This document shows positions 11,654 to 41,976 of a stretch of 64,000 bases of DNA, piece by piece. The notes beneath the pieces are model-generated. The model did no database searches. It was not told the DNA's origin and saw only the letters and a list, made by a program, of their open reading frames with translations. The translations under genes and the position numbers were made by a program. Positions within the stretch are counted from its first letter, which is position 1; every line of letters begins with the position of its first letter. Source of the stretch: Lingula anatina (lineage: Eukaryota; Animalia; Brachiopoda); assembly GCA_051362555.1 (NCBI GenBank), contig CM120641.1, positions 4,154,001 through 4,218,000 on the forward strand, written 5' to 3'.

Positions 11654-12228
11654 CAAAAGACGATGATAGTCCTCAATGTTACGGGTTTAGCACCGAAACA
11701 ATTGTGCACTAAACCAATGTTTTGATAAGGTATCGACTGTGCCGTGTCAGTCTGACACACAGGCCTTCACACACCTGCAGTCAACGTCGTCTTGGAGACG
11801 GCTTGCTTCGAGAGTATATTGATGTTCGCGGAGTGCAGGAGATCTCGTTGTTCTACAAGGCAAAAGCCAGAAAAGATTCGTTGCTGCAATTGTTTTAGAA
11901 TTAATTAGAGAGTTTATAAAAGTCGGCAAATACCAAAATATTTCCATATTTTTTATGTAAAATACTCGTAAAATGAGTGGTCGAGAGTATATATAGTCCA
12001 TAGCAACGTTATATTAATGCGCGTCAAATAAAACTTAATATCATATTTTTAAATCTCATAATATCAACCCAATTCTTTTTTTACTTCATCAATATACAAA
12101 TCTGTGTAACTCCTAATATTATTCAACAAAAACTAAGCATATTACATACGGATGCCATGTACAGACAGCGCAAGAATAAATGTTTACTATAGACGTGAGC
12201 AGGTCAAAACAATTTTAGTGACTGAAAG
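11654..12228. promoter_or_regulatory. Putative bidirectional promoter between the coiled-coil gene and CFAP299
   Basis: Divergent genes with local CpG enrichment and an RFX X-box-like GTCCATAGCAAC near 11996-12007. Confidence 0.55.
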
Positions 12229-14225
12229 ATGGAGGAAGAAGTGCCAAGTGGAGGTGACAATATTGTCACCGAATTTAATACATATGAAGACTTTCTTGAC
12301 TCTCAAATCACATCTTTAGATTTATATTATCTTGAGGTAAGCATTGTGTGTAGTTGCTACATTTTAACAGAAATACAGCTGTGAGTAATGACGAAAGCAA
12401 TTCTTTCAAAAGACTAGAGAAGGGAGGCTTGTATTTATTACTAGTGGGCACGTTGAAAAATGACAATTTCAAAGGAGTATTTCTAGAGATTTTTGAAATA
12501 GTTACAACATAAAAGATTGACCAGTATTCTTAATTTCAGTCATGTCACATGTAATGTACTCCATTCATCGTTTTAATGACACTACACTTCTATATAAATA
12601 TTAGGATACAATACAATACAATACAATAAATTTTATTTCATGTCGGTTAGGATGAAGAATTGGCACGTCAATTAGTGGAGTTAGGTTACAGAGGAAGTGG
12701 TGAGGTTTTAAAAAGGGAGGAATTTGAAGCTAGAAAGGCTGCAGCAGAAGCCAGTCGTCTGTCTAAGAGAAGTCAGCAAAAGTGAGTAACTGGTGGTTAT
12801 TATTATTATTATTATCATTATGAAGATGATGATGATGATGACAGTTTAAAATCTGTCCAATATTAACACACTGCACGTGCTTCTCTTGCCTTACCAATAT
12901 TTACTGTCAATTATATTATCTGAAGAGGAATAAAATCTTTTTATGAAATGATGATAAAAGAAATGATAAATGTTATAATTATAATAATAATAATAATAAA
13001 CCATGTCAGATACATGTAGCATACTTTATGTAGGCTATATAATCTTGGTGTGACTGAATATAATACTTGGTATATTTAGACATAGTAAAAGTATTTCATT
13101 TTTTTCCCTTCAGAACATTAGCAAGCTCTGGAAAAGAACTTAAAGATCCATTCTTGAAAGCCTTGGCAAACCGGGAAGAGGCAAATAGAAGTGGGAAAAT
13201 GACAGTATGTATAGATAAATTGATTTTTTCCAGTTCCAGCATATTTAAACAATTTATTGTGCAATAAACCTAAATGAATGTGTGTTGTAATTTTTTTGTC
13301 CAATTTTTTGTCTCATAAATTTTCAGTCAAATATATTTAACCTTGAGATGAATCAAAATTATAATTTAAATATTTTAATTTTTCTTTGCAGTCTATCATA
13401 TTTATTAGAGACAGAAATGCAAGGAGCCAAGAAATATCAGGATATATAGATTTTGCCCACAGGCTGAAAACAGAGGACTTCGAACCATACTTTAATGGGA
13501 AAAAGAGATTACTACCAAGGCCATCAGATTTGAGGTAATAAGCAATTGCATATTCAGATAATTCTGTTTTTATTATTATTATTATTATTATTCATAGTTC
13601 ATTCTATTAGTGGACATTGCCTTTAAAAGTAAATCCACTTAAAGCTTTTTGCATGAAATGTGTTTATGTTGGTTTTGAAACTTAAAATTTTGCATTTTAG
13701 TTTCTACAACTGGGAAACGCAGACATCCACATCAAACCCCACACCAAATTACCAGGTCATTGCTGAAAATGCATCTGGCCTGCTTTTTAAGAATAAAAGA
13801 GACAGAAAAATTATCAATGTTGATCCAAAGGTAAGCTTGGATAAATGGCAGTTTTATGATTTCAGCTATTTGTTTTATCAAGATAAATAAAAAGTTTGGT
13901 GGTTGATAATGTTTGATAGATCTTATTCTGTTTGATAATGCTTCAATATTATTCAAAATTAGGGTTTAATTAAACATATTATCAATGTTAGACAGATTGC
14001 TGATTTTACATAGTTTTACTACCTCTGCCATCTTAAGCCTTGCATTTCCAAAGGAATGGACATTTGTCATGTCACCCTTGTAAAAAATTATAACAATATA
14101 ACTCAGTTTCATTTTTATTTATTTAGGCACCTACACCTGGAGATAATTCAACAAGAACTATAGTAGAGACTCCACGTTATATCCAAGCAGTCATTTATGA
14201 TCACATTACTAGGAGGAAAACATAG
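12229..14225 (+). CDS. CFAP299: Cilia- and flagella-associated protein 299 (C4orf22 family)
   Basis: Exons 12229-12336, 12651-12781, 13114-13204, 13392-13534, 13701-13830, 14127-14225 give [53 protein letters not shown]...[28 protein letters not shown]...[15 protein letters not shown]...[12 protein letters not shown], which matches the family's conserved motifs. Confidence 0.93.
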
Positions 14226-15988
14226 CACATCAGATCAAACAAAGCCTGACTCTATCGTGGGTTTTAGCACATTTATCCCTGTTCAAGAATTAAAAGGAAT
14301 ACATTAACTCTCTTGTCTCTTTAAGTGGGCAAATAATATTCATGAGAAACAGTTAAGTTGTTGAAGACTATGGATTACGTTAATGTAAGAAATATAAAAG
14401 AGAAGCCAAGTTGAGGTTTAATATTATGGAAAAAAAAACTGTGCTCATATATTTTTTTTATAATAAATTGAATCAACAAAATAGAAATGTATTATTATAA
14501 TTGTAGTTAAATGTATCACATGCTCTCTTTTCCTGTTCCCTCTCCTTTATACAATTAGAAACAGTGCTGCTTTTGCTGCTTTTTACTCCTTCTGACACAC
14601 TTATTTTTGTTAAGCGAAATCAAAATTTACAATGTTAATTGTGTTCAAAAGATGTTCTCACATTTATAATTTTTGCTCAATATTTTTACAGTTTTCCAGA
14701 GAATCAACAAAAGTTATAATTGTTTCTTTAAAGTGTTTGTTATTTTCTTTCTGTCATTAGATAACGCATATTTGAAGTTTGTAGGGTTGGGGGTGTGGTA
14801 ACATTGCCTACTGCATTTTAAAGAGAACATTTCTACCTCTGTCGATTCCTTTTCTTCGTGTCAAAACATTCACCCAGGATTTTGTAATCTAATGGAAATT
14901 CATCTCTATAAACGTCAGACTCGAATAAATTTTGATAATTTTTTTGCATCTTCAGCAATGCTACAGGTGGTCGGGTCAGGCTGGGGTCGGGTTGCACTGC
15001 GAGCCTACATGAAAGAAACACCTCTATGCCCTCATATTCAAAAGATTTCTTTTCACATATCCATATATAAAGTGTTAGAAAAATTCCTTGTTGTGGGCTA
15101 ATTCAGGATCTTTATAAATAGGGCGGGCGAGGCGCACCCTTTCTGTTAAGTTTCTATCGTTCGTTTGCTTGTATACGTATTACGACAGGAAGTGTAGTGG
15201 AGAACCTCTATGTTGGGTGGGAGGGCGGGGTCCACGTGTGAAAGCATTCCACGTACCACTAATGTGCGACATGAACGGAGGATCGGTGTACGGGTGGGGC
15301 GGTCCGTCTAATTAACAGCGCGTTATTTAGACAGACCCAAGGGTCGGGCGTGCCACATGCAGTACGTTGTTCCTAAGTTCGCTTACTGCGTGGCATACAT
15401 GCAAAATGAAATAAAATTGTACAAATGTATATAAGGGCCATATGATAAAATACATCGCATATATATATGCGCCATGTCGGTAGCAAATTTCCTGTATTGC
15501 CAAACAGCGACTTGACGTTTAATGCCCCGTTCAAATGCTGTGTACCGTAAACACTCATTCTCAGTATATTGGTCCATTTAACTTTTTAAAAATGTTAAAT
15601 AAAAGTATGCCAGCAGAAGATCTGTCCAAAATGAACTTAACTAACAGGAGTCTAGCAATATACAAATGAAACAATAATTACTAGCTTTATCTGTTCTCAT
15701 AAACAGCATAAGCGGACTAAATTTAATACCTCAATTATTTTCGCTCGCAGAACCATCTCACCTTCTCCAATCGATCTAGTTCATTTTTACATTTTTAAGT
15801 AGAAAATATGCAACTTGTCAGGTAGCGAGTATGGTTTCTAACGATTCAGGAAATGTCTTGAATGTTTATTTCAAATAACTCAATAAATAGCTATAGTTTG
15901 CGGCTACTAACATGTGTCGCAGGATTTTTAAAAATTGAAAAACATTTGTTACGTTTTTATTTTGGCGCATGTCATTATTTTAGGTGCT

Positions 15989-16026
<38 letters not shown>

Positions 16027-16838
16027 GTAATATTACAGCCATTAATAAAATCATCAATTTAGTTTTATCCATTGTTAGCAAGAGAATATGATAACAGGTC
16101 ACAGTCAATTGTTTAGACGGAGCACGGCAAAACTGCATTCTCATAGAAACTAGAAAGTATTTGAAGAAATGCCATTTAGAAAGGCATTGTGGAAAATATA
16201 CTTGAGGTTGAGGGCAAAATGTGTCCGTCAAATAAATGTGCGTCTCGTAAAACCCTCAGCGCGGGCACTGTTTGTTGGTATTAAGAACGTGTGAGTATTG
16301 TCCCAAAGGGCTATTTTTACAACTTTTGTTGCCAAAATTGGCCTAACCTTCGTTCCTTAAATAAGCAAATCAAATTCATATAGGAGATTGGGAGAAAAGT
16401 CTGCTAAAAAGCGGGATCGAAATCCGTTTCATCCAGTATTTGTCAATGTACCATTACTAGTGACGCTTGGGAGGGGAACAAACAGGAAGTATATAACAGT
16501 CAACCCAATCCGCCAACCAAAACATATGACCCACTTAGACGGCGAAGACGTCCCAGGCAAGAGGAATGTCTCTAGTCGTGTCTCTTGTATATTTTAGCTC
16601 CTTCTGGTTTTAAATTGTGTCACCAAAGTCACAGGTCTGACTACAGGTAATTATGGTCACACAGAAAACTTTTAATGATGTTTTTGTTACTAGATGAACA
16701 CTCTTGTCTTAAAACTGCAAAGTGAAAGTTGTGACGTCAAAATACATTGTACACAAACTAGTACGTGTAAGTAATCGAGAATGGGACCCCATTTTATCCT
16801 AGTAAATAAACTAGTATATGAATATACATAATAACAAA

Positions 16839-17084
16839 CAGAGGCGGATCCAGAATTATTTGTTGGGGGGGGGGGGGGTCCGTGGGTTCGGGGCCTGCTT
16901 AAGGGCCCGGAAAACTTTTGGTATTTTAAAAGGCGAACGGTGCCATTTGGTACGGTTTAGAACTATGATTCAACTAGTCAAAATTCTAATTTCAAGAGGG
17001 GACCATTGGTGTGACTTTTTTCAGAAATCGAAGGGGGGTCAGGACCCCTGACCCCCCCCCCCCCCATAAAAAAATCCGCCACTG
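16839..17084. mobile_element. Non-autonomous DNA transposon (MITE) with CAG(A/T)GGCGGAT TIRs
   Basis: Termini CAGAGGCGGAT...ATCCGCCACTG with subterminal poly-G and poly-C runs; ACAAA is duplicated at both flanks. Confidence 0.78.
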
Positions 17085-17612
17085 ACAAAGATATATTGCA
17101 GAGACACCCATCCCTAGCTTCTAAATCACTTCTCAATCATTGAGTTGGCTTTTTTATCTTAATTCAAGTGCTTTGTAGTACATGTATGGTGCAAGTAACA
17201 TAGGATTTTTTACTACATATAATATTTGGCAACAAAATTTCTCTTTGATACTACAGTAATGTTGTGTTTAAAAGTTTACTCACATTAAAATATATCTAAC
17301 AGCAAGATGTTAACACAATGTGTTGATTGGAAGACTGCAAAACATGTTATATATGTATATATAGCCAAGTACAATGTATATGTAGGTTATCATACTAGTA
17401 AACATACAGTACTGCTGTACTTAGCAGTACTGATTCCAGTACTCCCACATAAAATAAACTTACTACCAGGTACTTTAAAGTCATGTAAAAACCAACAGTT
17501 TACCTTTTGATTTTGGATAAGAATTCTGTGCATACCAGTATATGATACATCAGATTGTCATGATTTTCTCTTCAGATTCATTTTGAAAACATTACAGTGC
17601 ATGTACTTCACA

Positions 17613-20600
17613 ATGGAAGAAAAAAAAGAAAAAATGGAAGAAGGAGCAGCAAAACCGACAAAAATCAGTATAAACAGCACTAAAACATTTAAAAGAGATG
17701 TAAAAGATATCTTCCTCTTGAAGAAAAAGAAACAAGCAAACACTCCAGAAATTCAGAAACTGAAGCATTTTCCTGAAGCAGATTTATACAAAGTCATCTA
17801 TTATGTTGCAAATGAAATTGCTGTTTGCTACGGGTGCCAGATTGGATCTTTGACCACTGACTCTGATGTTCACTCTTTGGCAGAATTTGCCGTCTTCTGC
17901 ATGCTTGAAACACTAAGAAGTGAAGAAGACCCCTTTAATAGGAACCGCATGTTGTTGTCTATTCTGGAGAGAAATGATTTGTCAGTTCTGAAAAGGAATC
18001 ATGGGTTTGAGGATAGAGAGGTGCTTACTGCATCAGGCAAAACATGGCGTCTGTCTGAAATCTTCAGAGAACCAGGTATTTGTATGCCAGTTGTGGAGAA
18101 AGGAAAAGGAGACATCAAAATGATGTTATATCAAGGAACAGCAGGTGAAGAGAAATATGGCTATAGATTTCCACTCACTGTGTGGGATGAGGATCAACAG
18201 AAGTTTGCTGTATGTGACAGCGATCAGCAGTATATGGACAGCTGTGACCAGAGAGAAGATGATAAACACTCTCTACTGTCAACTCAGAGCCTACCAACAT
18301 TGGTCCTCTATAACTCGGACCTTTTCCTAGAGTACATTCAGAAAGCTGCATCTGAAAAGAAAAAGATGACTTTTGGTGATTTTGTGAACGGAAAAGCCAA
18401 AGAGCCCTACTTGTTCATTGTGCTGCGGCCTGTTGATGGTTTTTCATCTACCACTATGCCATTCCTTGAGACTATGACACAATGCGACTTTTCAAATACC
18501 GATTTGTCTTTCCTGAGGTTTTCAAAGATCACAAAAGAAATAAAGGGCTGTAGTTTCTCAAGTGGAAATTTAAGCAATACAGATATGTCAGGTGTTGTCA
18601 TAACAATGTCAGATTTCAATTACGCAAATCTTTCATTTGCTTCTTTGATTGGCAGCAACTTAAGAAACTCAGAAAATACATGGAAAGACACAGTCTTTTG
18701 GTATACAGACCTCAGTAATGCAAAGCTTTCAGAAGAATTAGGACATGTGTTGAAAAAGGGGGATGATACAAATTTGGAAGGCTCTTCCATATTATCCCAT
18801 CCTTCAGGTAAAAAAACTAAAAAATTACACGTTAATATTGATAATGACATGAAGTCAAGACAAGATGAAGTTAAAAATCGTATTTATTGGAAGTACTTTG
18901 CTCATTGTCCATTATCACTGTTATATGTGTTCTAATAGTTTTGTTCATGTGCATAATGTGGCACAATTCTAAGGTAATTCTTTGTGTGAATACAGCAAAA
19001 TAGCCAACTAATTTTTACTGTTTATAATTATACACATTTCAGAAGACTGACTTGAAGTACTGGTATTGATAGCATATGAAAATACAGTTGTAACTGAAAT
19101 TTAGATTTAAAAATTGGAATAACAGTTTGATCGCAGTTTTCCCTTTTCAGAGGAGATGGCTACTAAAAGTAAAACAGTTCATGAAGATGATCCCACAACA
19201 GCAGTCAAATCACGTAGAGAAGGAGCAGAAGCTGTTGGTAATACATATTTAAAATTTTGAAAAGTTGTGTGAAGTTGATTTAAAAACCAAAACCAAAATA
19301 AACATTAACTTTAAGAAAATAAACATTAATTGTTATTTACTTGCATTATTTGATTAAGAACTTCGTAGTAGTTGAAATTGCGAGTGTGCCCCTGTACATT
19401 TAACATTAGAGTTCATACAATTTTCTCAAATGCTATAACAAGCAATTTTGAATGATGTTATCATTTAATTATGTTTTATCAAGAGAAAGACTTCCAAGAT
19501 GTCCAGTCTAAGAAAGGAGCTTCCCAGTTACCTGAGAGTGAGGAAGAGTCTTCAGATGACAGTGAAGAAGATCCTGATACAGTGGACAGTTTCCAGGAGT
19601 CTGGTGGCACTTACGCAGTTTTTCTACCCATGGAGCCTGACAGAGGTACTGGTCTACATATTTATAACTGCATGAATATGATGACTAAATGGTTAAACTG
19701 GATGATATCATATTGTAGATGATGCATGTAATAATTCTTGGATTGGAGCCACATCTTATTAATCTTTGTAGTTGACAGTTCCTTAACCTTATGTGAATGT
19801 GAGTGTGTTGTCTATGTTATTACATCATACGTCACATTCCAAATGGAACCAAGTTTGTAAGATAAAAGCTCTATGAAGGTGTGTTGGACTTTTTCATCCA
19901 TGCTAGCAGACCTGTATTGTGCATTATGTTTTCTAGGGAAGATGCAAACACCTTTGAGTGAACTTAGTGAAGACAATTCTCAGCGTAAGTTTAACTAATT
20001 CCATGATAATTAGTCAATAGAGATAAATTTTCATTGCCTTTGACTGGTAAATTACCAATCATGCAGAATACAGAATTTCAAAGATTTTAATAAAGAATAA
20101 AGGGTCAACGAAGAATGTTCCAATACCGTACATCCAAGCAGTTGAAAAACAGAGCAACAGTTTTGTTCAAAGTGATCTATGTGTAACAGAAGATAGGAGG
20201 TATAATGAGAAAAATATGGCAGAACAAATGAATAGTATTATATAACATTGTTTCAGAGATCAGACAAGAAGCAGACCAGCTAAATGCAGCAATGGCAGGG
20301 TCAGGGGACGTCAACTTTGTGTATGCCTGGGCGGCATGCGATGCCAGAGACCACCATAATGTATTCCTGGTAGTCTATGTTCGTAGCCTGGAAGAAAATT
20401 GTTGCTTGTTTTTGAAACAGAAGCTGGAGGAAATGAAATGTGCCAAGTACAAAATATGGCAGTTCAACAAACCAATTAGATCCAAGTTTCCTAGGTGCCA
20501 CAATATGGAACCAGTTCCACCTAATTGGGTTAGTAAAATGTGGAAGACTTTATATGAACATTCCATGAAGTTATTCCAAGAGCACAGTAATATTTCTTAT

Positions 20601-22649
20601 ATGACTGCCAGTAAATTTGAAATTGATCGAAATGGTCATTGTCACAGAAAAGATTGTGTTGTAGTGTACGTTAGGGACAAAGGTTACATTCCAGCCAATG
20701 AAAGAAGTTTTCCAAAAAGATTGCCCAACGGTATATCTGTGGATGTCAGAGAAGGTTATTACTGCCCATTAATGGACCACGAAGAAGGGGCTGGGACCAC
20801 TCTTGGTTGGGCTGGGGCTCCTAGAAGGGTGGCAAGAGCTGGGGCTGCTGGGGAAGGGACTGGGTCTCCAACAGAAAGTGCTGGTGCCCTAGAAGAAACG
20901 GCAAGGAACCGTAGTGGAGATGGTGCTCCTGGTGTGGAAGCGGGAGGTTCTGGGGGCAGGGATGGGGCTGCTGGGGAAGCAACTGGGTCTTCAGTAGAAA
21001 GCACTAGACCTGGAGGAGTAACAGGGGCCATGAGAGGAGGTGGTGCTCCAAATGTGGAAAACAGAGGTATTAGGAGCAGAGGTTGGGCTCATGGGGAAAA
21101 AATTGAATTTCTAAGAGCAGCAGTTAGGGGTTTTGGAGGAGAGACTAGAGGTGAATTTAAACAGCATTTAACTATAGGTTGTGGTATCAGCAGGCACAAT
21201 GACCATTACTATGGCACAGGGACACTGGGAATGTTTGTCAAAGATAAGCTGACCAAGGAGATTGGTCTGCTTACTGCTGCTCACACTCTGATCGCTCAAA
21301 CACAGATGGTTATTCCTGTGCCGGAGGAAATTGATCCACTAGCACTCCCAATGGAAGGAAGTATGTATCCTAGTGACAGAAGTTTTACAGCGCAAGTGTC
21401 TGATGAACAGACTGAAGAAGCCAGTGGGGAGGGTACTAATTCTCCAAGTTCTGTACCTACAACCACCCCTCCAGAGAGTGCCAATGCCTCCCCAGATTTA
21501 AGGCCATCCCCTGTTGTTGCACCTGTACAGCCATCCCATCAGATTTCACCCTTCACTTCCTTGCCAGCAGGTTCAAGACCGGCAACATTTTCGACTGGCA
21601 AAGAACCACTAATGTTACCTGAAGCTTCTGGCTACACATCATGTCCTGATGCAGTGATTCGTTCTCAGTCTCACAGTCCAGTGGCACGGACTTGTGTAGC
21701 TGAAACAAATCAATCTATCTCAAAAATGGCAAATGTGTCATCCACTTCCAGACCACAAAACATAACGACTTCTACTTTAGACTCATTACGACATAGGACC
21801 CCATCTGAAAGTGCTGTGCCTCAGGATATGCCACCCACCCTGGTCCCCAATCCCCAAATATCCCCTCTTAACCTACGGGGTCCACAATTCCGCATGCAGG
21901 GGAGCTCTGAAGAATTACCAGCAGAAACATTTGTGGTACAGCCGTCAGAGGGGGAGGTCAGCTGGCTGCGTTGGTCTTCAGATGGGAATGAAAGATATGA
22001 TGTGGAAAAAAGAAAATGTGCTGAAGTTAAAAGCCCACGGATGTATTGTTATGGGGTCAGTCAAAGTAGAAATTGCGATTTTTTGCTAAAATTGTACCAT
22101 CAGAGAGATCAGCCTGGTCCTGTTCCAGTGGGTATTGATGCCGTTTTTGCTTCAATTTTGAAACCACGCCAGCCAGAAAATTCTTCATTCTTGCAAGGTA
22201 AAGTGTCCTTTGATGAACCCAATATCCTCAATTTGGATAATATTGTAGAGATTTTAAATGGTGAATGGGAAGCTGAACCATGTATAAGAAAAGAATTAGA
22301 TGGTACATTCAGTTTGGAGGTCTTCAAATATGGGTATAGGACACAACTCACAAGGGGTAAATTGAATTTTGTTGGTGGAATTCCCTCAGTCATTTCCAGG
22401 TATGGTTGTAGTTCAAATGCCAACATCTTACCAAACCAAATGGAAGTTCAGTTATTTGATCAGTCACCAGCATTTGCAGACCATGGCGACTCCGGTGCCA
22501 TCGTTTTCACAATTTTGAAACAATCTCTGTATGTAGTGGGAATGGTGATAGGAAGGATTGGTGAAAAAATTGTAGTGACACCAATAGAACCTATCTTTGA
22601 AAAATTAGGGCTTGAATTTTTGGAAAAGCAGGATTACCCAACAGCTTGA
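17613..22649 (+). CDS. ~1294-aa fusion protein: unknown N-terminal domain + pentapeptide-like repeats + acidic linker + NAL1/Ssy5-type trypsin-like serine protease
   Basis: Exons 17613-18807, 19151-19237, 19484-19645, 19937-19984, 20257-22649 join in frame through four GT-AG phase-1 introns (3885 nt). Repeats: CDFSNTDLS, CSFSSGNLSNTDMSG, SDFNYANLSFASLIGSNLRN, TDLSNAKL. Protease motifs: GTGTLGMFV, LLTAAH, GIDA, VFKYGYRTQLTRG, FADHGDSGAIV. An alternative in-frame ATG is at 17601. Probable 5'UTR exon donor near 16646. Confidence 0.8.
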
Positions 22650-23035
22650 AATACATGAACTGGTTGTGATAGGATTTGAAAACTTGCAGAAACATAATTG
22701 TAAATATTGTATTTTTTTATTTATATAACTATATGTATAACATGCAGGAGAAGAAAAAATAAAGGCACAAGTCAGTCATTATTTTTATTTTTTATTACCG
22801 ACTGGAACGTACAGGAAACTTGAAGAAAAAACTGAAAACTGATAAATCTCCAGCACTCACAAATTATGGTGTAATATTAAAAGTTTCATAAGTGTTTCCT
22901 GCTCATGTAATGTTGTCACCACAATTGTTACAACAGCATTTCTTTCTACAGATTCAATTGCTTTCAGAGACAAATAATAAATGGGCAAAAACTATCAAAC
23001 AGAATCATGTGTACACATGTAAATTAACTTAGAAA

Positions 23036-23260
23036 CCATTCCCACAGACATTTAGATTGATCTATCCCCCTGGGGAGTCTCACTAGATTGCTGTCAGCTT
23101 ACCCGGCTTAAATGTCTGTGCCTCCTACTAAAAGCTGTAAGGGGATAATTAACTTTAGTGTGTGCTCGGCTCCCAGAAGCTGACAGCAATTTAGCATGAA
23201 CCCCCAGGGAGTCGAGTTGATCCAGATGGATCGATCCAAATCTGTGGCAACCCAGTCTTA
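23036..23260. mobile_element. Palindromic MITE-like element
   Basis: Inverted arms CCACAGA..TT.GAT.GATC.ATC...CCCTGGGG...TTGCTGTCAGCTT / AAGCTGACAGCAA...CCCCAGGG...GATCGATCCAAATCTGTGG. Confidence 0.6.
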
Positions 23261-24484: not shown

Positions 24485-27400
24485 TCAAGATTTAGAAAAA
24501 TAATGATGTAGGGTATTATAAACTGATGTTTTGCTTTTCTTAGGATTATGTCTCCCGGGCTGATTATCAGATTTTCTCTTTGCTGCAGAGGATGGAAAAC
24601 CAGTGGCATTGGTGGAGGCACTTGCACCGTTACACTGTTTCTGTAACTCCAATGCAAAGTGATAGTCCAGGTGTTCAGGTAGCTCCCAAGCCGAGATTTT
24701 CCTACCACATTTCTCACATGTTTGCATGTCCAATTCGTCCACTGCACTTGTGGAAGGATTGCCAGGCAATGGGCCTGTGGTCATTTTCTGGACTGACCCT
24801 ATGTGGTCATTTAATAGCAAAGAAGCTCCCTCTTTGATTTCAAAGTTGTATTCCCGTTGTTCTCTCTCTGCACAATTAACTTTAATATTAGCATTTCCAT
24901 TCAACTTTTCGTAAGTTCCTTGACAAGTTCGTGCATTGGTCAATACTTTACTAAATGCTGAATCATTTTGCACTTTATCACAGTCTACTTCTAATACTTC
25001 ACATACTGCAGAGCCATGATCCCCATCTAGTGCTTCCAGAGAACAGTCAACTTTATCATATTTTGATTCAAAATCCTTTTGAATCAATTTGGAGTTTCTG
25101 TGTGATTCATTCAGAGGCAATTTGGTTACTTTGCTTTTGAAGAAACTTTCAATTCCCCCTCTAATTTTCACAGGAGACTTACTTGCACTAGGACTGGAAT
25201 CATTGTTGACAACAGTTGCACTTATTTTGGACCCTTTTTTACTTTTAGATAAAGGCTTTTGTTTACTTTTGCTGTCACTGACAAGGAATTGCTTGATGGT
25301 GGGGTTAGCAGTATTGGACATTTCATCAAATTTCCCTGCAGACATACCAAGGCATATGATGGCCGGAACCCTATTAAAAATTATATAAATGTTAGTTACT
25401 CATCTTAATAAATGGCTGAAACAAAGATCATGGTGGTCAATATTCTGACAAAAGTGTTGAACATTTTAATTTTTCACTGCAATATTTTTCATTTAATTTT
25501 ATAAGAATACAATGCCAGCTAGAGGAACCAAAAATAAACTATTAAAACTCGAGAATTTTGCCTCATGGAAAAACTAAAATATCCTGCAGTTTTAGTATTT
25601 AAGATTTTTTTAATCATTATGAGAATTAAATATTGTAAGCAGAATTCAAATCAGTCATAATTGAAAATGACACAATATTACCATGCAGACTGATGAGGAC
25701 CAGCAGTGTTGAACTTCTGTAGCAAAGAGAAAGCATCATCACAAATCTTCTTCCTTTCATATTTCACAATCGCACAAGAGCGTGATGACGACACTGGATT
25801 GGGGTTGCTAAGGTAGCGCACACTTACATTTAAGTGTTTAGCAACTCTGTTGTTCTAGAAACAAATGTATTTAATACAGATCTACAAACATGTATTTCAT
25901 GTTAACTCCATGCATGGCCTGGTAAGATTTACCTTTAGGAACAATTCACCTTGCTTTTAGGAATTAACCAAAAAAACAGTTGGACAGGACTGTCCACTAC
26001 CAGAGACAAATTTTGTGAGATTTAAATTTTAAGACGCAAACCTTCATGCCAGTCACCATCTTTGCAAACCAAGAGCACATATCCTAACTTTATTGCCCTT
26101 GACTAAAAAGTAATGTTTCTACTGTCAAATCAGAAAACGAACAAAGTTACGTTCTAATAAGTGAAGATTTCCCCAATTACATGCAGACTTGTGTTATATT
26201 TAATATCACCAATCTTCAGAGAAATACATTAAGAGACAGTATGTGCGTGTCTGTGTGCATGCGAGCATGCGTGTACCTGTGTATGTGCATGAGAACCCCA
26301 CCACATATACAGGATGGCATTATGAATGTACTTGTTTATCACTTGTACTTGTTTACAATCAATCATCACATAATTCTGTGTTACATAAGAGAATTATCTG
26401 TCAAAAGAAATTTTGCCAGACTTTACATACCACTTCTTTGTCTTTGATCAAACGTTCTTCCAACTCTCCAGAAAGTTGATCCAACCAATACCTTACCTAG
26501 AAAGATTTAAAATCTGTACGTTTCAATTTTATCTAACTGGGAGCTGATTTCCGTCTGCTTTAACTACAAATGCAATCATTTCATTTTGAGAAATATGAAA
26601 ATATTTTTAATCAATTCTTTTATTTCATTTTGAGAAATATGATAATATTTCAAATCAATTCTCTTGCAAAACATCCACTAAGTATTATCAGACTTTTCAC
26701 CGAAAACAGACAAGTTGCACTTACTTTTTCCCTGGTGTCAAGGCAGTTCTTTCCAGTGAAATTCTTACTACATCCAATAGACTTTGCCAGTTGTCTGGCT
26801 GACACTGCTTCATGTTCTTCCCCTCTACACACAGCAAACAGCCAAGATCTAAATAAACATTATTACAGTAGGTAAAAAAGGGTTTAAAAGAAATGAACTA
26901 ACACCATTTTTATTCTCAAATTCTACTATGATATGCATAAGTTTATCACCAAATGGAAGTTCCAACTTGAACTGTGAATTCACCACTTTTGACATTTAAA
27001 TGCAATTTCAAAGGAGGTCATTTTATATGTGCATCTACTCTAATACTGTTCATCAATCTTCATAGAGAATTTATGCATAATATTATCAAGTATTTGCTAA
27101 CATTTGCTTGTATATTTTCCAAGTGTTCCATAAGCCAAGTCTTTGAAAACAAATAAAAAACATTTTCTTTAATCCTTTAATATAAAATTACCTTTCATGA
27201 AAATACTGTCTTCCCACATATCCAATATATCATCACTGCACCATTCTGTTATACATACCCAGCTTTTTCTCCAAAATAGTTCTGCAGCTGTTGTTCAGAA
27301 TATTTACAGATGTCTGCCACATTTTCAACTCCCAGTTTTAGAATGACTTCCTCCCCAAACTTCCCACCAAAACCTCTCCTACAGAAAACAATTATGATAC

Positions 27401-41263: not shown

Positions 41264-41976
<713 letters not shown>

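Follow-up and report, generated by a model that had tools for sequence, protein, structure and literature searches.

What does a serine protease do behind a head for which no counterpart can be found? The question is raised by a gene of the brachiopod Lingula anatina, located on the plus strand at 17613–22649 of a 64,000-nucleotide stretch of contig CM120641.1 (GenBank assembly GCA_051362555.1, positions 4,154,001 to 4,218,000 of the forward strand) that is referred to here as the window. A reading of this stretch from sequence only had proposed that five exons splice into a protein of ~1294 amino acids joining an orphan domain and pentapeptide-like repeats to a protease of the NAL1/Ssy5 type, and that the product could be a cytosolic sensor coupled to a protease. 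The gene is NAL1-type by fold and by motifs, lies below the Pfam cut-off and has a head that was detected in this lineage only. Our favoured reading, which we regard as evenly poised between right and wrong, is that it encodes a cytosolic, regulated effector protease of immunity or stress, mounted on a swappable head that serves as a sensor or targeting unit.

According to modelling, the last exon is a complete NAL1-type cassette with a predicted NAL1-like fold. The catalytic residues picked out in the sequence-only reading are exactly placed (His840 at 21282, Asp1125 at 22137 and Ser1243 at 22491). In an alignment of 100 family sequences the histidine is present in 99 rows, the serine in 97 and either aspartate or glutamate in all 100 at the acidic position, giving the combination His/Asp/Ser in 80 rows and His/Glu/Ser in 16. 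When a profile of 100 family members was compared with the PDB, nine rice NAL1 sequences were retrieved at E 1e-12 to 1e-11, the next match being at E 0.13 (the NAL1 references are PDB 7Y77, 8PMG, 8PN2 and 8HAS, and the Pfam entries NAL1_N, PF25608, and Nal1_C, PF25819). An AlphaFold2 model of the cassette has a predicted template modelling score of 0.66, the folded parts mostly showing a predicted local distance difference test value (pLDDT) of 80–95 and the inserts described below less than 50. With this model NAL1 ranks first in Foldseek, and in a VIA-align comparison with 48,161 chains NAL1 is aligned over 315 residues with Z 23.2 and a root-mean-square deviation (rmsd) of 5.0, against Z 16.7 and 190 residues, within the protease part only, for the runner-up chain. 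The NAL1 alignment starts at model residue 75–77 (NAL1 residue 90–92) and reaches NAL1 residue 455, covering 303–316 residues in most rows versus ~185 for chains comprising a protease only. Because it runs from NAL1 residue 90 to 455, the model matches both the ATP-binding domain and the protease of NAL1. Neither Nal1_C nor NAL1_N matches this protein at E ≤ 1, so that the curated cut-off is not reached; two inserts split the domain. At E 3e-7 the last exon also matches PHROG 20754, annotated ‘protease’. We infer that the protease would be active and that its two long inserts would loop out from it. The protein lacks a hydrophobic N-terminus and any segment long enough to span a membrane (the best 19-residue hydropathy, 1.76, lies inside the protease), in line with the signal peptide and transmembrane segment having been called absent. 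The parts of the gene are as follows.

16560–16646, plus strand: exon upstream of the coding sequence, non-coding, with its donor at 16646 and only an approximate 5′ end; joint 16646/17576 (GT..AG) crossed by 4 reads in RNA run X9.
17601–18435, plus strand: first part of coding exon 1, starting at 17601/17613, with a lysine-rich N-terminus and the orphan domain (residues ~40–275), for which no relatives beyond two Lingula records were found.
18462–18728, plus strand: pentapeptide-repeat block, residues 284–372, ~17 partly irregular repeats, recognised from PF00805, PDB pentapeptide matches, repeat register and ESM Atlas features.
19151–19237, 19484–19645 and 19937–19984, plus strand: three linker exons, 99 residues in all, acidic and serine-rich, with reads over their 3′ joints and identical in LOC106180801.
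20257–20504, plus strand: first, diverged repeat of a fold like the NAL1 ATP-binding domain, residues ~498–580, matching the next domain in profile–profile comparison and folded in the model.
20520–20768, plus strand: second repeat, the equivalent of the NAL1 ATP-binding domain, residues ~586–668 (VVYVRDKG, VDVREG), the most conserved block and aligned to NAL1.
20775–21134, plus strand: insert 1, ~120 glycine/alanine-rich residues, partly an internal duplication of ~120 bases, recognised from spacing, repeats and pLDDT below 50.
21162–21311, plus strand: first part of the protease, with GTLG and LLTAAH, the latter containing the conserved His840.
21312–21911, plus strand: insert 2, ~200 serine/proline/threonine-rich residues between the catalytic histidine and aspartate, recognised from spacing and pLDDT below 50.
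21912–22649, plus strand: second part of the protease, with Asp1125, K.G..T..T.G, Ser1243 in GDSG and the stop codon, identified by conserved columns and the fold match.
22758–22763, plus strand: candidate poly(A) signal AATAAA, found in the sequence only.

The gene is transcribed, and the model of a single gene encoding 1,294 amino acids is confirmed apart from the joint between exons 1 and 2. Five exons (17613–18807, 19151–19237, 19484–19645, 19937–19984 and 20257–22649) give a stop-free frame through GT-AG introns, all four of the coding introns being phase 1. Since the frame also stays open in 20 nearby GT/AG combinations, an open frame alone is little proof of the model. Stronger support comes from LOC106180801, a near-identical L. 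anatina protein of 1,286 amino acids that aligns without internal gaps and from a second L. anatina record spanning the whole protein, LOC106180797; both are ‘uncharacterized’ in NCBI. An in-frame ATG at 17601 would place the start four codons before 17613, as in LOC106180797. Within the window the gene is present once. RNA from four of nine runs labelled as the same species (X1, X4, X7 and X9) was mapped onto the region, and three of the four joints for which reads had been called for were found: 19645/19937 in 16 reads from three of the four runs, 19984/20257 in 11 reads and in a further 10 whose letter at the joint differs, and 19237/19484 in five reads, all from a diverged copy carrying 9 extra bases at the joint. 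The fourth, 18807/19151, which creates the fusion, is not among the RNA joints listed, at a depth of ~1–3. It rests on splice signals (a strong pyrimidine tract and AG on the exon 2 side of intron 1 and a GT donor of matching phase on the exon 1 side), on the stranded run X4, whose coverage leaves no bin of the gene empty and lies throughout on one strand, that of the plus-strand gene upstream, and on the two full-length NCBI models. No AATAAA or ATTAAA poly(A) signal was found in the sequence of intron 1. Expression differs between runs, X1 having zero sense-strand reads over the gene.

Two features of the cassette are notable. The ATP-binding-domain-like fold appears to be present twice: when the first and second repeats were compared by HHalign, a match with a probability of 73.6% and a score of 25.3 was obtained, compared with controls of ≤16.2 in 30 column shuffles, 9.6 with a reversed profile and ≤11 for four other segments. 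A profile of the first repeat matches 111 family proteins in our set, this one included (E 7e-6), and the diverged repeat is thus a family trait. The second feature is the inserts. The distance from the second repeat to GTLG is 155 residues here against a median of 32 and a maximum of 45 in relatives, and that between the catalytic histidine and aspartate is 285 residues against a median of 55 and a maximum of 139. The glycine-rich insert, which holds a tandem duplication, now decayed, whose period is ~120–123 bases (20835–21105), is the most variable part between copies, 20 of its 130 residues differing.

The protease is no one-off, as the sequence-only reading had taken it to be, but belongs to a large family: a HMMER scan with the last exon detected 207 relatives at E ≤ 0.001, the best 150 of which were retrieved. 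A word-based protein search with the same exon found LOC106180801 only. The best-scoring blocks of the family are the VVYVRDKG–VDVREG domain and the region around GDSG, and identity within the family is 22–30%. Of 30 proteins looked up (LOC106180801 included), 19 could be named, five from Lingula and 14 from bivalves (the latter from Mercenaria, Mya, Sinanodonta, Argopecten, Saccostrea, Mizuhopecten, Dreissena and Tegillarca), and all 19 are uncharacterised or hypothetical in NCBI. Nal1_C is matched by 18 of 115 relatives of at least 400 amino acids at E ≤ 0.001, four of them at or above the cut-off. A hydrophobic N-terminus is seen in just five of 117 proteins, and the family therefore looks intracellular. 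Among the same 115 relatives, 22 carry a recognised Pfam head: ankyrin repeats in nine, DUF4559 in four, NHL in two, and CARD-NACHT, CARD, DED, Roc-COR, HSP70, ubiquitin and Ig once each (counts that include one ankyrin and the CARD below cut-off). More than 300 residues precede the conserved domain in 45 of the 115. A looser Pfam scan of 30 relatives added weak hints only. Neither pentapeptides nor the orphan domain of this gene occur among the 115 relatives scanned.

Lingula encodes at least four further NAL1-type cassettes (P0073, P0005, P0010 and P0002). In LOC106157810 (P0073) the cassette sits after CARD-NACHT, in place of leucine-rich repeats, and LOC123545053 of Mercenaria is a fusion of DED with the cassette. 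A midpoint-rooted FastTree phylogeny of 118 complete cassettes (from 155 proteins; incomplete ones and two isoforms were left out) unites the Lingula cassettes of LOC106157810, LOC106167508 (P0005, Roc-COR) and the head-less P0010 in one clade with support 1.0. That CARD-NACHT, Roc-COR and head-less cassettes are sisters points to head exchange within the Lingula lineage. P0109, a 708 amino acid protein from a JGI/ENA metagenomic cluster of 15, branches near the gene under study on a very long branch and differs in sequence style; it is possibly a non-animal family member. PADLOC gave no relevant match (for 32 proteins, a single helicase row). In the literature searched, mainly open-access, we found no paper describing NAL1-type proteases of animals, and four Lingula accessions are absent from the parts of PMC8195603 that were searched for them.

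The head has far fewer relatives. For the orphan domain (residues 40–275) none was found beyond the two Lingula records among proteins of longer and near lengths, and nothing in ESM Atlas, Pfam, NCBIfam, PHROGs, the genome contigs or the fetched family proteins; a plasmid search with the head returned pentapeptide matches only. Its orphan status is nonetheless provisional, and the domain may resemble invertebrate proteins labelled ‘DDB_G0287875-like’, a label for which the literature searched yielded Dictyostelium papers only. Three loci (L001–L003) considered as relatives were rejected as short chance matches, each built around a seed word and lying in unrelated reading frames. The structural model of exon 1, built from three near-identical sequences, has a pLDDT of 30 and is uninformative on fold; a search with it gave nothing at E ≤ 0.001, which at that confidence says nothing about the fold. 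The pentapeptide repeats that had been noticed in the sequence-only reading are supported, PF00805 scoring 35.2 bits against a cut-off of 20.2 (E 9e-9), and the ESM Atlas neighbours of the block that carry PF00805 are bacterial or viral clusters. We found no evidence for the suggestion that the repeats mimic DNA: the block spans just ~90 residues and scores 18 bits against the 240 needed for Qnr. The 99 residues encoded by the three small exons are, from their composition, likely to be disordered. No Pfam match to a NACHT/NB-ARC or Roc-COR domain was found in exon 1 or the last exon.

Of the systems with which the protein can be compared, rice NAL1 is the closest. Rice NAL1 is described as active only as a hexamer, with the ATP-binding domain building a trimer, and as acting on FZP and OsTPR2 (PMC12012508). 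The two proteins share the order of an ATP-binding-domain-like fold followed by a chymotrypsin-fold protease, the succession His-Asp-Ser, the GTLG, K.G..T..T.G and GDSG motifs and the absence of a signal peptide. They differ in that identity is ~16%, in that the Lingula protein adds two long low-complexity inserts and a 500-residue N-terminal extension with the orphan domain and pentapeptides, and in that it has an extra diverged ATP-domain-like repeat in front, which is not part of rice NAL1 as described in PMC12012508. The ATP-contacting residues of NAL1 are R120, R122, K123, K139, D166 and V167 (PMC12012508). By spacing only, K639 and D660-V661 (kept in 99, 95 and 84 of 100 rows) could correspond to K139 and D166-V167, and E619 and D621 sit where the basic patch would be, so that here the patch would be partly replaced by acidic residues.

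Fungal Ssy5 (MEROPS S64, PF08192), which had been put forward on an equal footing with NAL1, is also an intracellular signalling protease of the chymotrypsin clan but is, by profile, the weaker comparison. The Peptidase_S64 profile scores 23.6 bits, equal to its cut-off, with the C-terminal piece (a weak match around the catalytic serine) and 20.6 with the whole exon, and only profile positions 589–682 of 692 (~94) match. Ssy5 carries a self-cleaved inhibitory prodomain (PMC6761765); S64 has been treated as fungal and a Crassostrea entry in the Pfam family doubted (PMC5567314). Second-best as a protease fold match is the alpha-lytic protease group (S1E; 2ALP, 2SFA and 5MRT), with Z ~17, rmsd 2.3–2.5 and 185–190 residues aligned; these are, however, secreted bacterial enzymes and the match excludes the N-terminal repeats. 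We take the pro-regions of this group to be built of two alpha/beta repeats. The pentapeptide proteins (PF00805; MfpA, Qnr, HetL) share the repeat pattern, but the block here has irregular ends and lies within a multidomain animal protein, far below the NCBIfam cut-offs for Qnr (penta_rpt_Qnr), HetL and PipB. The lophotrochozoan NAL1-type proteases (for example LOC106157810, LOC106167508 and LOC123545053) share the cassette and triad and differ in their heads.

How might such a protein work? We propose that the cassette, contained in the last exon, is probably spliced behind the lineage-specific head of orphan domain and pentapeptides; a single exon behind a phase-1 intron could be moved behind new heads. 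The head would sense a signal or target the enzyme, within a pathway of innate immunity or of stress. At rest the enzyme would be held off, plausibly by the extra ATP-domain-like repeat serving as a built-in pro-piece, an inhibitory role suggested by analogy with pro-pieces such as that of Ssy5 (PMC6761765). Binding of a trigger by the head would bring copies together and switch the protease on, clustering being proposed because rice NAL1 does not cut unless assembled into a hexamer (PMC12012508), and the substrate of the activated protease would be cytosolic or nuclear. An effector switched on by proximity would be in keeping with an assembly-dependent, one-exon cassette that occurs behind heads of the NACHT, Roc-COR and death-fold kinds. 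As relatives carry the cassette behind immune-receptor and cell-death domains, membership in an unstudied protease arm of invertebrate immunity is likely. Support for the suggested sensor-plus-protease is genuine, though indirect, coming from the CARD-NACHT, Roc-COR, DED, CARD and ankyrin heads of relatives, two of them in Lingula. A bolder version of the proposal, which we hold to be doubtful, has the lophotrochozoan NAL1-type protease take the role that caspases play elsewhere, as an executioner activated by clustering that carries its own inhibitor repeat and has been shuffled onto heads of the NLR, Roco, death-fold and ankyrin types; in the present gene the head would be a decoy of bacterial-style pentapeptides whose fold is novel, heads having been exchanged between diverged copies of the locus.

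Several observations weigh against an immune or stress effector. No recognised head is found in 93 of the 115 relatives, and a death-fold, NACHT or Roc head occurs in only four. The nearest relative of the gene in the tree is the head-less Lingula P0002 (support 0.965, long branches) rather than the NACHT or Roc fusions. The sensor role of the head is a guess by position, because the head has no known relative and its model a pLDDT of 30, and the joint that would attach it to the cassette is the one missing from the RNA reads listed. The inserts far exceed in length those of any of 99 relatives. At one position of the ATP-domain-like part, where 79 of 100 rows have lysine or arginine, this protein has Glu619; by spacing only, the site may belong to the phosphate-binding patch of NAL1 (PMC12012508). 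The neighbours, a DUF4464 gene and a UBZ-bearing, presumably polymerase-eta-like gene, are not immune genes. Lastly, the read differences considered next are the best-supported rows only and may stem from a paralog or another population.

When distinguishing residues were compared, the gene in the window proved to be a mosaic of the two NCBI records: exon 1 is of the LOC106180797 type at 25 of 25 such residues and the rest of the protein of the LOC106180801 type at 44 of 46, with the change-over near intron 1, somewhere from residue 383 to residue 416. Reads from X7 and X9 carry the opposite mix at six listed sites, with three 801-type residues in exon 1 and, downstream of it, two 797-type residues and a 797-type codon insertion. 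The mosaic may reflect a real exchange of heads among diverged copies, or else the older assembly may have switched phase. In run X7, reads over the protease gene are at best 2–11 letters off the window, compared with 0–2 over the DUF4464 gene. Of the 33 coding differences among those listed, 21 change the residue, a proportion that is not equivalent to a ratio of non-synonymous to synonymous rates (dN/dS). A comparison of the window with LOC106180797 gives 5 differences in the 299 positions of the protease halves and 32 in the 325 of the inserts, the pattern that purifying selection on the enzyme would produce. An open frame of ~1,290 residues is kept in the window and in both reference copies, the indels between copies being in frame.

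The same observations can be read in other ways. An active NAL1-like regulatory protease might have no immune function, trimming or degrading transcription regulators or condensate proteins whilst its head recruits the substrate or sets the location; this is what the sole characterised structural relative, rice NAL1, does to FZP and OsTPR2 (PMC12012508). The run of lysines at the N-terminus could be a nuclear signal judging by its sequence, most relatives lack a recognised immune head, and expression varies between runs. A developmental regulator would, however, be expected as one conserved gene, rather than in an expanded, fast-diverging family with lineage-specific heads that include NACHT, Roc-COR and death folds, and we consider this reading unlikely. 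Less credible still is that the gene is a degenerating or catalytically muted copy, in which inserts and altered basic patch block the active oligomer and which persists as a decoy, a scaffold or a neutral by-product of exon shuffling. Inserts of ~120 and ~200 residues without match in 99 relatives, acidic residues (Glu619, Asp621) where relatives are mostly basic, the long branch, the low read depth and three X9 reads in which the loss of one base is followed three places on by the gain of one would all suit such a copy. Set against them are the intact triad and family motifs, the frame kept open in all three copies and the concentration of differences in the inserts rather than the protease.

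It is also conceivable, but very improbable in our view, that two adjacent genes have been joined in error, with the frame of exon 1 ending at a stop at 18935 and a protease transcript starting at exon 2, where an ATG lies near the start. No listed read crosses 18807/19151, head and cassette are joined in no relative, and head-less cassettes do occur in Lingula. Yet the acceptor of exon 2 is strong and the donor of exon 1 matched in phase, intron 1 has neither poly(A) signal, both NCBI models are full-length fusions and X4 coverage is unbroken on the one strand.

Upstream of the gene, at 12226–14230 on the plus strand, lies the well-expressed DUF4464 gene that was used as the strand control, presumably CFAP299. 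The gene downstream (24485–25399, minus strand) ends in a UBZ zinc finger and is one that we assume to resemble DNA polymerase eta. In X1, low coverage of the opposite strand runs into the 3′ half of the protease gene, possibly as read-through. Two short inverted-repeat elements, at 23030–23240 and 16850–17080 (arms of 33 and 31 bases), attract many partly matching reads; they are likely to be non-autonomous transposons, one of them within the first intron of the gene. Further away, a reading frame at 41424–41885 (minus strand) encodes an InaF motif (TRP-interacting helix; E 8e-17).

Studies of NAL1-type proteases have so far dealt with rice, and the Ssy5 family, which is related, has been described as a fungal innovation (PMC5567314). 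The Lingula gene is an odd member of the animal family and not its best representative, the CARD-NACHT fusion of the same species offering a cleaner test of an immune function; what it contributes is a head without an assigned fold and a cassette with heavier insertions than any other seen, and with these a probe of how modular the enzyme is. If the favoured reading of a regulated immune or stress effector is true, an expanded family of animal proteins with intact triads, carried on CARD-NACHT, Roc-COR, DED and ankyrin heads, would constitute a new class of invertebrate immune effector, one that would also be of relevance to farmed bivalves.

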